From contig CAVPHD010000005.1 of the NCBI GenBank assembly GCA_963704165.1, positions 160,001 to 224,000 of the forward strand: a stretch of 64,000 nucleotides of DNA, written 5' to 3'. Source of the stretch: an uncultured delta proteobacterium. Its GTDB lineage: Bacteria; Myxococcota_A; UBA9160; SZUA-336. Of this stretch, positions 2,967 through 7,314 are shown in pieces; the first letter of the stretch is position 1; each line of letters begins with the position of its first letter. Both the position numbers and the translations under genes were made by a program. The notes beneath the pieces were generated by a model. That model did not search any database and was not told the origin of the DNA. It saw only the letters and a list, made by a program, of their open reading frames with translations.

Positions 2967-3025
2967 CGCGGCGCATCGTACCCGATGCAGCCTGTACAAT
3001 GCCGGCCCAACGTCGGGAGGAGCGC

Positions 3026-3805
3026 ATGGCGGACTTCTGCAAGGTCGAGCGAGACGGACGGATCTGGGTCGTGACGATCAACCGCCCGGAAGTGATGAAC
3101 TCGCTCCACCCGCCGGCGAATCGCGAGCTCGCGAAGATCTGGGACGAGTTCGAAGCCGACCCCGAGGCGTGGGTGGGCATCATCACGGGTGCGGGCGATC
3201 GCGCGTTCTCCGCCGGCAACGACCTGAAGTACCAGGCGACGGGCGGCGACATGCGCGGACAGCCCGCGAGCGGATTCGCGGGGCTGACCGCGCGTTTCGG
3301 CCTGACCAAGCCGCTGATCGCGGCGGTGAACGGCGTTGCGATGGGGGGCGGATTCGAGATCGCGCTCTCCTGCGATCTGATCATCGCGTCGGACAAGGCG
3401 CTCTTCGCGCTGCCCGAGCCGCGCGTCGGTCTCGCGGCTCTCGCCGGTGGACTGCAGCGGCTGCCGCGCATGATCCCGCTGAAGCAGGCGATGGGCATGA
3501 TCCTGACCGGTCGCCGCGTCGGCGCGCAGGAGGGCAAGGAGCTCGGCTTCGTCACCGACGTCGCGTCCCACGATGCCCTGATGAAATCCGCGCGCAGTTG
3601 GGCGGAGCAGATTCTCGAGTGCTCGCCGCTGTCGATCCGGGCCAGCAAGCAGACCGTGCTGCAGAGCCTCTCGATCCCGGACCTGGCGGACTCGATGCAG
3701 AACTCGCTCTACCCCGCGATCGCCGACATGGTGCGCAGCGAGGACTTCGTCGAGGGTCCGAGGGCCTTTGCCGAGAAGCGGAAGCCGAAGTGGAAGGGAC
3801 GCTAG
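3026..3805 (+). CDS. Enoyl-CoA hydratase/isomerase (crotonase, CaiD-like)
   Basis: INRPEVMN, AFSAGNDL, KPLIAAVNGVAMGGGFE, ALPEPRVGL, AFAEKRKPKWKGR; GGAGG RBS before ATG 3026. Confidence 0.93.
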   Translation: MADFCKVERDGRIWVVTINRPEVMNSLHPPANRELAKIWDEFEADPEAWVGIITGAGDRAFSAGNDLKYQATGGDMRGQPASGFAGLTARFGLTKPLIAAVNGVAMGGGFEIALSCDLIIASDKALFALPEPRVGLAALAGGLQRLPRMIPLKQAMGMILTGRRVGAQEGKELGFVTDVASHDALMKSARSWAEQILECSPLSIRASKQTVLQSLSIPDLADSMQNSLYPAIADMVRSEDFVEGPRAFAEKRKPKWKGR

Positions 3806-4419
3806 GCCCGCGCCGCAGAGCCAGCTCGGCTCCCCGCAACGACCGGCGACGAGCGCGCATCGTCGCGGCGCTGCGCGATTGCATGCTGGAGCGCGGATAC
3901 GCGGCGACGAGTCTGTCCGACATCGCGCGAAAAGCGGGAATGACGCCGAGCCATCTGCTCTACTACTTCCAGGGCAAGAGCGAGATCCTGAACGCGTACT
4001 GGGAAGCCACGGCCGCGATCGTGCTCGAGCGACTGCGCGAGATCGAGTCCGAGCCGATCGAGCGCCGCCTCGACCTCTTGGGCGACACGTTCTTCTCCGG
4101 CGTGGTGGCTACACACGCGGATGTCGGCGTCGTGCTCGAGTTCTTCGGCCTCGCCGTGCACGACAAGGACCTGTATCGCACGAAGGCGGATTTCGACCGC
4201 GAGATCAAGATCTGGCTCGCGAAGCTGCTCTCGCAGTGTCCGCGCCCGCTCGGCGCGCTGCTCGATGCCGCGGCCGAAGCGGCGTACTCGCTGCTGGTGG
4301 GCCTGTGCACGGCCGCCTACTTCGACGAGCGTCTCGGCTTTCCGGAAGCGCGCGCGATCTTCCTGATGTCGCTGCGCGGCGTCGCGGGTTTCGAAGAGCC
4401 GCCGGTGACCCAGCGCTGA
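3790..4419 (+). CDS. TetR/AcrR family transcriptional regulator
   Basis: RARIVAALRDCMLERGYAATSLSDIARKAGMTPSHLLYYFQGKSE HTH; GTG at 3790 overlaps the upstream gene end (start approximate). Confidence 0.85.
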   Translation: MEGTLGPRRRASSAPRNDRRRARIVAALRDCMLERGYAATSLSDIARKAGMTPSHLLYYFQGKSEILNAYWEATAAIVLERLREIESEPIERRLDLLGDTFFSGVVATHADVGVVLEFFGLAVHDKDLYRTKADFDREIKIWLAKLLSQCPRPLGALLDAAAEAAYSLLVGLCTAAYFDERLGFPEARAIFLMSLRGVAGFEEPPVTQR

Positions 4420-4485: not shown

Positions 4486-7314
4486 GTGAGAGGGGTGGGG
4501 GAACTGGCGTTCTCGGCGGGGCCGACTGCGTGCGCAGTTGCGCGCGTAGGTCGTCTCTTCGCAAGCGGCGCCGCATCGCTCTTGCTCGGAATCGCGCCGG
4601 CGACGCTCGTGATCGCCAATACCGACCCGCCGCCGCGAATCGTGAAGTCGGCGGATTCGCGCGACATGCGCGTCGTGCGAGGCAACCTGCACGGCCTCGC
4701 CAAGCGTGCGCGCGACGAGGGTCGGGTCGAGCCGACGCTCGTGCTCGATCGCGTCGCGCTCGTGTTCAGGCCGTCGGAGAGCCAACAGCGCGACCTCGAC
4801 GCGCTCCTGGCCGAGCAGAGGGATCCGGCCTCGCCGGGTTTCGAGAAGTGGTTGACGCCGGACGAGTACGCCGCGCGTTTCGGCATGAGCGACGCCGATC
4901 TCTCCACGGCGACGGAGTGGCTCGAGTCACAGGATCTCACGGTGCAGAGGACCGCGCGGAGCCGGAACGAGATCTCGTTTCGCGGAACCGCCGCGCAGAT
5001 CGAGAACGCGTTTCGAACCGAGATCCATCGCTACCGCATCGGGAGCGAAGTCCACTTCGCCAACGCGACCGAGCCGTCGGTCCCGAGGTCGTTCGGCGAC
5101 TCGGTGCTCGCGATCCGCAATCTCAGCGACTTCCGTCCACAGCCGAGACTTCGACGCGCGGTCCGCGGACCTCGCTTCACGTCGGGGATCACGGGCAATC
5201 ATTTCCTGGCGCCCGACGACTTCGCCACGATCTACGGTGTACAAGCGCTCTACGATGCCGGCTTCGACGGCACGGGCCAGCGCATCGCCGTGGTCGGGCA
5301 GACGGCCCTCGGCGCCGGCAACAGCCCGGCCGACATCGAGGCGTTCCGGGCGGCCGCGGGGCTGCCCGCTGCCAACCTGCAACAGGTTCTCGTCCCCGGG
5401 ACGGGAAGCTCGACGGTTTGCAGCGACGATCTCGTCGAGGCGCATCTCGACGTCGAGTGGTCGGGCGCGATCGCGAAGAACGCGACGATCGTCTACGTGT
5501 ACACGGGCGTGCGATCCGGACGCAGCTGCGAGAACACGACCGCGAACGTCTGGGACGCACTGCACTACGCGATCACGAACAACCTCGCTCCGATCCTCAG
5601 CACGAGCTACGGCGCGTGCGAGGCCGCGAACGGAGCTGGGTTCGCGCGGACGGTTCGGAGCTGGGTGCAGCAGGCCAACGCGCAGGGTCAGACCGTCACC
5701 GCCGCATCCGGGGACCTCGGCGCCGCGGACTGCGAGCCGCGCGACTCGGTCCTCGCGACGTCCGGCCTCGCGGTCGACGTGCCCGCCAGCATTCCCGAGG
5801 TGACGAGCGTCGGCGGTACCGGGTTCTACGGCGACCTGCTCGATCCCAACGCGTACTGGAGCGACACGAACAACTCGCACGGTGGATCCGCCACGCAATA
5901 CATCCCGGAGGTCGCCTGGGACGACACCGAGCTCAGCATCGCGCTCGGCGGTGGATTCGCCGCGAGCGGTGGCGGCGCGAGTCGCTACTTCTCGAAGCCG
6001 AGCTGGCAGACCGGATTCGGTGTGCCCGCCGATGGACGTCGCGACGTGCCCGACGTCTCGCTCGCCGCCTCGGCGAACCACGACGGCTACCTGATCTGCT
6101 CGCAAGGGAGCTGCGTGAACGGCTTCCGGGACGCGAACCTGTTCCTGACCGTGATCGGAGGGACGTCCGCCTCGTCGCCGAGCCTCGCGGGGATTCTCGC
6201 GCTCATCGTTCACGGTACCGGAGCGACCGGGCTCGGGAACATCAATCCCACCTTGTACGCCTTGTCTCTGAGCACACCTTCGGTGTTTCACGACGTCACG
6301 GCCGGGAGCAACGTCGTTCCGTGTAGCCCGGGTACGCCGAACTGTCCGGCGCAGCCGCCTCGCGAATTCGGGTACAGCGCGGGCGCCGGGTACGATCAGG
6401 TGACGGGCCTCGGCTCGATCGACGCGTTCGCGCTCGCGGACAGCTTCGCCGCGAAGGTCGCGACTTCGACGACGCTCTCGTCTTCGAGCGTGGCGATCGC
6501 CCCCGGCGGGAGCGTCAGCTTCACCGCGACCGTCGCGAAGCTCTCGTCCGGCTTCGGTTCGCCCACGGGCGGTGTCGTGCAGTTCTCGATCGACGGGGTC
6601 GAAGCGGGAGATCCCGTGCCCGTCTCCGTGGTCGGTGGAGCCTACCGAGCGTCGTACACGACGGCACCGCTTGCGAGCGGCACGCGCAGCGCGACGGCGG
6701 CGTACCTCGGAAATCTCGTCCATCTCCCGTCGACCTCTTCCGCCGTGAACGTGAACGTCGCGGACTACTCGCTCACGCCGAGCCCCGCGAGCGTCACCCT
6801 CTCGCCGGGTGGAGTCGGAAGTTCCACCATCACCGTCGAGAGCGCCGACGGCTTCGCGGGCACGGTGACGCTCGGCTGCACGCCCCCGGCTTCGAGCGCT
6901 CGGGTCCGTTGCTCGATCCATCCGGCGTCCGTTGCACTGAGCGGCGGATCGCCGAGTCAGACCGCGATGCTCTCGATCACGACGACCACGACGACCACGG
7001 CGGGTACGGCCACCGCGAACCCCGCGGCGGGCCCGACCGGCGGCTCCGATCCCCGCCTCGCCGTCGGCATCGGATGCGCTCTCGTTGCGGCGCTTCTCGC
7101 CTCGCGTCCGCGGCGGCGCCGGCGTCTTTCGTGGGCGCACGCGCTGGCGCTCCTCGTGATCCTCGGCACGGGCGTCAGCTGTGGGGGCGGGGGTGGTGGC
7201 GGCGGCGGTGCCACTTCGAACTCGGGGACGCCGCTCGGTGACTACACGATCGCGGTCACCGGAACGAGCGGCGCCATCGCGCGCGTGACCAGCGTTTCGC
7301 TCGCAGTCCAGTGA
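4486..7314 (+). CDS. Secreted S53 (sedolisin/kumamolisin) serine peptidase with pro-domain, Ig-like domains and C-terminal membrane anchor
   Basis: Pro-domain (QQRDLDALL..QRDPASP.F.KWLTPDEYAARFG), catalytic EAHLDVEW, AASGD, GGTSASSP, Ca-site GYDQVTGLGSID, then Ser/Thr-rich Ig-like repeats. TATTCT lies 8 nt before GTG 4486. Confidence 0.92.
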   Translation: MRGVGELAFSAGPTACAVARVGRLFASGAASLLLGIAPATLVIANTDPPPRIVKSADSRDMRVVRGNLHGLAKRARDEGRVEPTLVLDRVALVFRPSESQQRDLDALLAEQRDPASPGFEKWLTPDEYAARFGMSDADLSTATEWLESQDLTVQRTARSRNEISFRGTAAQIENAFRTEIHRYRIGSEVHFANATEPSVPRSFGDSVLAIRNLSDFRPQPRLRRAVRGPRFTSGITGNHFLAPDDFATIYGVQALYDAGFDGTGQRIAVVGQTALGAGNSPADIEAFRAAAGLPAANLQQVLVPGTGSSTVCSDDLVEAHLDVEWSGAIAKNATIVYVYTGVRSGRSCENTTANVWDALHYAITNNLAPILSTSYGACEAANGAGFARTVRSWVQQANAQGQTVTAASGDLGAADCEPRDSVLATSGLAVDVPASIPEVTSVGGTGFYGDLLDPNAYWSDTNNSHGGSATQYIPEVAWDDTELSIALGGGFAASGGGASRYFSKPSWQTGFGVPADGRRDVPDVSLAASANHDGYLICSQGSCVNGFRDANLFLTVIGGTSASSPSLAGILALIVHGTGATGLGNINPTLYALSLSTPSVFHDVTAGSNVVPCSPGTPNCPAQPPREFGYSAGAGYDQVTGLGSIDAFALADSFAAKVATSTTLSSSSVAIAPGGSVSFTATVAKLSSGFGSPTGGVVQFSIDGVEAGDPVPVSVVGGAYRASYTTAPLASGTRSATAAYLGNLVHLPSTSSAVNVNVADYSLTPSPASVTLSPGGVGSSTITVESADGFAGTVTLGCTPPASSARVRCSIHPASVALSGGSPSQTAMLSITTTTTTTAGTATANPAAGPTGGSDPRLAVGIGCALVAALLASRPRRRRRLSWAHALALLVILGTGVSCGGGGGGGGGATSNSGTPLGDYTIAVTGTSGAIARVTSVSLAVQ

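Follow-up and report, generated by a model that had tools for sequence, protein, structure and literature searches.

The stretch of DNA analysed here, 64,000 nucleotides of contig CAVPHD010000005.1 from an uncultured delta proteobacterium of the Myxococcota_A (hereafter the window), carries the gene of an S53 (sedolisin/kumamolisin-type) serine protease at 4486..7314, recognized from an open reading frame (ORF) call and family matches. The last immunoglobulin-like (Ig) domain of the protease is interrupted by a predicted membrane hairpin that ends at a lipobox-like Cys. The gene and all of its parts lie on the plus strand, and the product has 942 residues when counted from the GTG at 4486, or 939 from the database start at 4495. 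The N-terminus resembles a signal peptide by eye (4495..4617; two Arg and a hydrophobic stretch, without a lipobox) and is predicted to direct Sec export. It is followed by a Pro-kumamolisin activation domain (PF09286; residues 75-216, 4708..5133; Pfam E 7.6e-27, 94.8 bits against a cut-off of 23.5) and by the catalytic region with C-terminal calcium-site motifs (5437..6414), located by motif positions and by related sequences that match PF00082. The motifs E318-x3-D322 (EAHLD at 318), SGD410 (SGD at 408) and GTS561AS (GTSAS at 559) are present, and Glu-x3-Asp, SGD, GTSxS and the calcium-site motifs are what we take to be the catalytic and metal signatures of S53. The 942-residue protein thus has both the activation domain and the catalytic motifs of this family, and continues with an intact Big_3_5 Ig-like domain (PF16640; residues 664-759, 6475..6762; Pfam E 3.1e-10).

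The tail starts with the N-terminal part of the split Ig domain (DYSLTPSP...AMLSITT, about 75 residues, 6763..6984), delimited by structure prediction and profiles, the two Cys of which are likely paired together. A disordered Thr/Ala/Gly/Pro linker (6985..7050; predicted local distance difference test, pLDDT, about 50), a candidate place for the second cut considered below, leads to predicted membrane helix 1, running from outside to inside (7051..7101; AlphaFold helix 98-114 of a 184-residue piece, best 17-residue hydropathy 1.97). The basic loop RPRRRRR (7105..7125), predicted to be cytoplasmic, would form the n-region of an internal signal, and predicted helix 2 (7126..7179; AlphaFold helix 118-137, hydropathy 1.82) its h-region, ending in LGTGVS with G-V-S as a relaxed lipobox. 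Next comes Cys899 (7180..7182), from its conservation the predicted lipidation site and +1 residue for LspA. Nine Gly (7183-7209) and a spacer fill 7183..7224, where relatives carry whole inserted domains, and the last two beta-strands of the split Ig domain, placed by AlphaFold and profiles, reach the C-terminus at 7225..7311 ahead of the stop codon at 7312-7314. All these tail elements, from the Ig N-half through the helices, the Arg run, LGTGVS-C and the Gly9 run to the last strands, had been listed in the preliminary description of this DNA, and each lies where it had been placed.

Two separate profiles, one for the N-part and one for the last two strands, were applied to 268 homologues. 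Unsplit copies, in which the strands directly follow the N-part, number 340 in 109 of the 268 proteins, and 83 of them lie in 56 proteins whose C-terminus has the hairpin form. The distance between N-part and strands is bimodal, no copy having a gap of 10 to 50 residues. Hairpins were called by hydropathy and basic residues, the Cys not being used; this gave 214 hairpins, while 54 further proteins, mostly unsplit-repeat proteins, gave no call. In 211 hairpin tails the N-part stands just upstream in 210 and the strands are found by profile in 196; of the other 15, 14 have divergent strands by eye and one looks frameshifted. When the query consisted of hairpin and strands only, the Ig N-part was still present in 11/11 non-self proteins. 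In the AlphaFold model of the 184-residue piece (67 sequences), residues 1-80 reach pLDDT 89-98 and the strands at 160-183 reach 97-98, the two helices about 70 and the linkers about 50. Residues 1-184 of this model superpose on residues 404-502 of a sialidase with 98 aligned residues, a root-mean-square deviation (rmsd) of 1.9 and Z 12.4. The 75-residue N-part by itself could not contribute that many residues. Judged from the profiles and the model together, the Ig domain of the tail is really split and its post-Cys strands complete the N-part fold in cis. This bears out the earlier proposal that the C-terminal strands complete the Ig domain, which agrees with the pLDDT of these strands, the match of 98 residues to a 99-residue solved Ig domain and the 340 unsplit copies.

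The closest solved folds are the Ig linker domain of the Micromonospora viridifaciens sialidase (PDB 2ber, 1eut) and the C-terminal domain of Vpr (8jmw), at rmsd 1.9-2.1 over 98-102 residues; both differ from the tail in being uninterrupted and without a membrane segment, at 16-20% identity. Ig domains of pilus systems are also among the fold matches (Z about 10), and Foldseek gave no match at E<=0.001 for the tail model. A two-chain prediction of the N-part with the C-terminal peptide scored 0.54 against 0.01 for the best control (contacts agreeing to at least 96%, partner pLDDT at least 66), a weak support; halves of a known Ig fold may pass through likeness to solved folds. The mark applied was reached by 116/157 solved pairs and 2/215 mismatched pairs, and only 18 of the 157 solved pairs reached it with a score of 0.60 or under. 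In these runs the Ig N-part had a pLDDT of 76 with the true peptide and of 59-62 with unrelated partners. The species-genome scan for the tail gave a single match, confined to the last strands, plasmids gave none and no sequencing run came up; these blanks do not count as evidence. The unsplit Ig form is also repeated in long tandem series, of up to about 20 copies, within large proteins (P0004, P0013, P0014, P0033, P0045, P0174 and others), which often end in a single C-terminal helix and a basic tail.

The segment behind the Cys can itself hold a whole domain. In three sister species (G002, G006 and G011) the Gly tether is followed by an FnIII domain, and only then come the last strands; the Pfam match in G011 covers 2-83 of 84 positions. 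These FnIII-bearing orthologues are found at L067:8613-9365 (-), L068:8832-9617 (+) and L069:1852-2622 (-). Other relatives carry a Big_3_5, an Fn3-associated or another Ig-like domain at the same place (P0100, P0118, P0372, P0378). In the G011 model, too, the fold is completed by the terminal strands, at pLDDT 96-98 (Z 12.7, rmsd 1.8, 98 aligned residues), and the FnIII part, with few aligned rows, is poorly modelled (pLDDT 40-53). In alignment and model, the post-Cys segment thus appears to behave like the mature part of an exported lipoprotein, its last strands belonging to the upstream domain.

The Cys is present in 211 of the 214 called hairpins; among the remaining three, inspection by eye shows the Cys in one and no true hairpin in the other two. 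It is also present in 66 of 69 distinct split copies from 79 metagenome loci (all C-terminal; the remaining three have it by eye), in 54/54 hairpins among 105 new proteins and in all eight Myxococcota-side copies inspected; the sets of 214, 69 and 54 hairpins may overlap. The preliminary description had made conservation of this Cys in homologues a touchstone of its reading, and on this point it holds. Of the 211 hairpins, 205 have G, S or A at -1, the last basic residue stands a median of 19 residues before the Cys, and the post-Cys length has a median of 44; Asp never occurs at +2 in 54/54 hairpins. The two Cys of the N-part are also kept in 73/83 unsplit copies, which leaves the third Cys without an evident disulfide partner. 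As in signal peptide II, the invariant Cys follows a basic n-region and an uncharged h-region; the signal, however, is not at the N-terminus, the Cys being residue 899 of 942. Among 120 full-length carriers, a hydrophobic segment stands at the N-terminus of 96, in no case with a lipobox, and another helix-like stretch in the body occurs in only two. A single N-terminal segment without further body helices fits a topology in which the passenger is outside, helix 1 leads in, the Arg loop is inside and helix 2 brings the Cys to the outside. One locus (L008:1045-2631 (-), G034:C23) carries, by eye, a helix, a basic loop, a helix, a Cys and a Gly-rich segment without a split Ig domain, together with a PEP-CTERM-like end; Leu precedes its Cys, so that it has no lipobox.

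The tail belongs to a catalogued family. It matches NCBIfam NF058595 ('invert_tail, lipo-invert putative C-terminal anchoring domain') over residues 826-942 (6961..7311) with 71.9-76.4 bits against a curated cut-off of 37, and the alignment covers model positions 2-113 of 113 and ends at residue 942; such a full-length match, at E 2e-21, speaks against chance. The model is likewise matched by 67/67 aligned homologues (E<=0.1), the host genome (84% complete) holds one copy only, and a Pfam scan placed no named family inside the 184-residue tail. By profile, the protease tail is a member of NF058595, already curated by NCBI with its anchoring function listed as putative, and the family name already implies a lipoprotein-type C-terminal anchor. 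The model begins at the last strand before the hairpin, so that the Ig N-part is uncovered, and the sister species with the FnIII insertion are matched only in two pieces. With the 184-residue piece, 4605 representative proteins match at E<=0.001, unsplit Ig repeats among them. The passengers are S53 and S8 proteases, FG-GAP and SBBP propellers and glycoside hydrolases, that is polymer-degrading or adhesin-like proteins, of soil and peat bacteria. Literature searches by tail name, Acidobacteria sorting and internal lipobox, with subscription journals, preprint supplements and the NCBI comment outside their reach, retrieved no description of the tail. The earlier remark that no mechanistic description was known therefore agrees with the papers found, and it overstated the novelty of a tail that is curated as NF058595.

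The nearest Atlas clusters of the tail are found most often in Acidobacteriota, judged from the few members with a taxon, in line with the Acidobacteria surface proteins named in the preliminary description, and named carriers belong to Acidobacteriaceae, Acidiferrales and Terracidiphilus. Among relatives of the host, NF058595 is above cut-off in 6/41, all of the same genus, and in 4/301 genomes of the phylum; sub-threshold matches in the phylum scan are uninformative, 6/14 control genomes matching too. The protease itself was found in 7/121 genomes of the class and 1/63 genera, and in 7/12 genomes of the genus, and two of the five genomes without it are more than 90% complete. In a FastTree phylogeny of 56 S53 domains, two of which carry taxon names, five sequences of the genus group together (support 99), with the nearest outside sequences at 50-57% identity. 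The GC content at third codon positions is 0.85 in the protease gene, between the values of its neighbours (0.90 and 0.79), and thus gives no sign of recent transfer. This distribution is consistent with an old acquisition of the protease gene followed by losses, and the horizontal acquisition raised as a possibility beforehand is now probable, given the confinement of the gene to one genus of the class. In one orthologue (G010; L064:6542-9355, G010:C19:76736-79355) the frame is split by a frameshift in the catalytic region. A genome from another class of the phylum (G270; L070:7729-10134 (-)) encodes a distant S53 protease (35% identity) that ends in this tail as well, there with a canonical IASC box; it possibly represents an independent acquisition.

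Around the protease gene, the window holds upstream an enoyl-CoA hydratase and a TetR-like regulator (both by eye, at 2999-3805 and about 3800-4419) and directly downstream an aromatic amino acid lyase (PF00221; 7311-8921). These neighbours are not conserved across the genus and differ between genomes (42 neighbouring proteins scanned, 38 of them from 84 called ORFs). Nor does any neighbouring enzyme recur in the 38 metagenome loci that span 8 kb or more, where 240 neighbour ORFs fall into 204 clusters, none of them in more than three loci; a seeming 19-locus cluster disappeared once opposite-strand shadow ORFs were removed. Of the 23 multi-locus clusters 22 were scanned, apart from the 181 singletons, and these 22 are housekeeping families or match nothing. 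The host genome encodes two Lgt (above cut-off at G000:C4:149496-150320 and C5:92393-93124), LspA, two Lnt (above cut-off at C3:98630-99814 and C7:47328-48536), three rhomboid genes of which one is split, LolA and GspD. As no neighbouring enzyme recurs and internal start codons do not exceed background, lipidation and LspA cleavage by housekeeping enzymes are inferred.

From these features a two-cut anchoring mechanism may be proposed. The N-terminal signal would export the protease; helix 1 would then stop transfer with the Arg run inside, and helix 2 would re-export the tail, which by the positive-inside rule would bring the Cys to the outer face of the inner membrane. On homology and structure prediction, the post-Cys strands pair with the N-part into one Ig domain, and the housekeeping Lgt, LspA and Lnt would process the Cys. 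Since an LspA cut alone leaves the protease attached to helix 1, the Arg loop and helix 2, tethering by a lipopeptide needs a second cut. This cut, the weakest step, would fall in or just before helix 1, be made by a rhomboid or a periplasmic protease, and remove the hairpin. The lipid would then be the sole anchor, and Lol, type II secretion or both could carry the complex to the outer membrane or the surface. Anchoring by a lipid at the C-terminus would be apt for a zymogen, the N-terminus of which is lost upon activation. The case for a second cut at helix 1 is indirect: the Cys would otherwise be redundant, the cassette lies inside a fold, Asp is missing at +2 and the outer third of helix 1 is rich in Gly and Ala. 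We consider it an even call whether the tail is such a portable anchor, in which an Lgt-lipidated and LspA-cut lipopeptide of 44 residues holds the protease non-covalently through the completed Ig domain. The lipopeptide tether by beta-strand complementation suggested in the preliminary description is retained as to the strands, which complete the Ig fold; it lacked the second-cut step, as a single LspA cut leaves the hairpin attached.

Several observations weigh against the two-cut mechanism. The homologues were mostly gathered with Cys-containing queries, which leaves some ascertainment bias in the conservation of the Cys; the set of 54 hairpins was ranked mainly by Ig repeat number and another search was seeded on the post-Cys strand, both being scored with Cys-containing queries. 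The strict lipobox, [LVI][ASTVI][GAS]C (PMC3850990), occurs in only 52/211 hairpins and a relaxed pattern in 187/211; the site of the protease itself, GVSC with Gly at -3, fails the former and fits only the latter. As a control, 135 N-terminal hydrophobic-Cys candidates of the host were chosen without regard to -1; the -1 residue is G, A or S in 117 of them, and the -3 residue is G or S in 15 of these 117; the screen is crude and includes some wrong calls. By this comparison the relaxed GVSC lipobox is within the host's own range. The internal lipoprotein signal postulated earlier therefore keeps its lipoprotein-like geometry (spacing, small -1 residue, invariant Cys), with a relaxed in place of a strict lipobox. 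Furthermore, lspA of the host is split by a one-base frameshift (G000:C1:518326-518758 (-), locus L049). A rhomboid gene (C1:431773-432187) and the second EF-Tu gene (C9:117167-118355) are also split in the host assembly, which suggests assembly indel errors; with these genes split alike and lspA intact in 11/11 other genomes of the genus, its frameshift is probably of this kind. The 211 hairpins contain no conserved motif for a second cut, the top of helix 1 being Gly-rich in only 115/211 and the linker variable, and AlphaFold models no membrane, with a helix confidence of only about 70 pLDDT.

These points also define the alternatives. The most serious of them, tentative and clearly less probable than the two-cut mechanism, is that the hairpin is retained and the Cys lipidated, whether or not LspA cuts there. 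The protease would then stay in the inner membrane facing the periplasm, the strands would only complete the fold and the lipid would be a second anchor. Lipidated polytopic proteins do exist, such as CyoA and QoxA, helix 1 is hydrophobic enough to anchor (family median hydropathy 1.94), and neither a second cleavage motif nor a dedicated enzyme was found in the hairpins and loci analysed. With a retained hairpin, however, an invariant Cys and a position within a domain would be superfluous, as unsplit-repeat relatives (P0013, P0014, P0033) use a single C-terminal helix; the lack of Asp at +2 and the polymer-degrading and adhesin-like passengers also argue against retention. That the hairpin is an uncleaved membrane anchor in which Lgt and LspA have no role is improbable. 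The Cys would then serve a disulfide, S-acylation or a dedicated enzyme as with MYXO-CTERM. The rarity of the strict lipobox would suit this, and Cys-containing C-terminal sorting tags without a defined lipobox are on record (PMC11980579). It is opposed by the small residue at -1 in 205/211 and the signal-II-like spacing, by the lack of a partner Cys (only 65/211 have one near helix 1) and by the single-copy gene in a genus far from Acidobacteriota without a co-located enzyme. Very unlikely is complementation in trans, with domain-swapped chains or exchangeable passengers as in pilus donor-strand exchange: the two-chain prediction did pass weakly and pilus-system domains are among the fold matches, but the same strands are paired in cis in unsplit copies and in both single-chain models. 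That an in-frame start codon within the gene yields the Arg-helix-Cys segment as a small lipoprotein of its own hardly comes into consideration, and this reading was rejected, for the ATG, GTG or TTG codons within eight codons upstream of the Arg run in 37/70 metagenome copies merely equal the background inside helix 2 (37/70; ATG 12 versus 13), no position is conserved, and the gene in the window has no such codon in residues 850-881.

Returning to the two-cut mechanism, its wider form would be an undescribed sorting route, in which a hairpin is excised by two cuts and large enzymes or adhesins are held on the outer membrane solely by a fold-completing lipopeptide; we put this forward with some reserve, as its chances seem slightly below even. 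If housekeeping enzymes are sufficient for the two cuts, transfer of the tail into the genus would be explained, and the tail might also serve as a C-terminal display tag. If true, the two-cut route could carry extra domains on the lipidated side, such as FnIII in the three sister species, and release of the passenger under force or unfolding would be possible, as proposed for MAIN domains. Its demonstration would reveal a natural use of Lgt and LspA on a near-C-terminal lipobox together with a non-covalent lipid tether made from a split fold, and a sorting route distinct from sortase, exosortase, rhombosortase and myxosortase. As a sequence feature, the host copy adds little beyond host range and nested-domain variants.

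Compared with bacterial lipoproteins processed by Lgt, LspA and Lnt, the tail is alike in its basic n-region, the h-region of about 18 residues, the small -1 residue, the invariant Cys and the Gly-rich tether. It differs in that the signal lies about 880 residues from the N-terminus and behind another helix, that -3 is Gly, and that the piece bearing the lipid would comprise just the last 44 residues. Hayashi et al. reportedly found in 1985 that engineered internalized prolipoprotein signals can be processed. With MYXO-CTERM/myxosortase and GlyGly-CTERM/rhombosortase the tail shares the portable C-terminal tag with a helix and an Arg cluster on diverse exported proteins, and the proposed lipid anchoring followed by type II secretion. 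In those systems, the motif (Cys or GlyGly) stands ahead of a single helix, the Arg cluster closes the chain and the passenger carries the lipid covalently, whereas in the lipo-invert tail the Cys comes after a second helix and the passenger would be attached non-covalently. The Cys of MYXO-CTERM stands before one helix, cleavage by MrtX has been shown, and lipidation is predicted with Lgt as a candidate (PMC11980579); the terms for Acidobacteria, lipoprotein, Lgt and invert do not occur in the text of the myxosortase preprint. The tail falls outside MYXO-CTERM, as a Cys lies upstream of the Arg run in only 65/211 and the chain runs 62 residues past the Arg run; TIGR03901, the MYXO-CTERM model, had no match in the host genome, with a control that likewise matched nowhere. 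It also falls outside GlyGly-CTERM, having a second helix and 44 more residues, and a Gly-rich top of helix 1 in only 115/211.

A functional parallel is offered by the MAIN/GAIN and SEAL/RsgI domains, where a signal peptide and enzyme or adhesion domains are likewise followed by a cut domain held by beta-strand pairing with an envelope-anchored C-terminal piece. For MAIN domains, the cleavage products remain bound and anchored (10.64898/2026.05.12.724683), and the accessible part of this paper does not mention lipoproteins or Acidobacteria. MAIN/GAIN and SEAL/RsgI domains are autoproteolytic, with the cut in a beta-turn, and are anchored through sortase, by wall binding or in the membrane. The tail, in comparison, has an Ig sandwich in which the break carries a membrane hairpin and would be cut by membrane enzymes; its top fold matches are Ig sandwiches. 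By analogy, the tail would work like a lipoprotein signal combined with a non-covalent tether of the MAIN/GAIN type, and by the defining features of these two it would be a member of neither.

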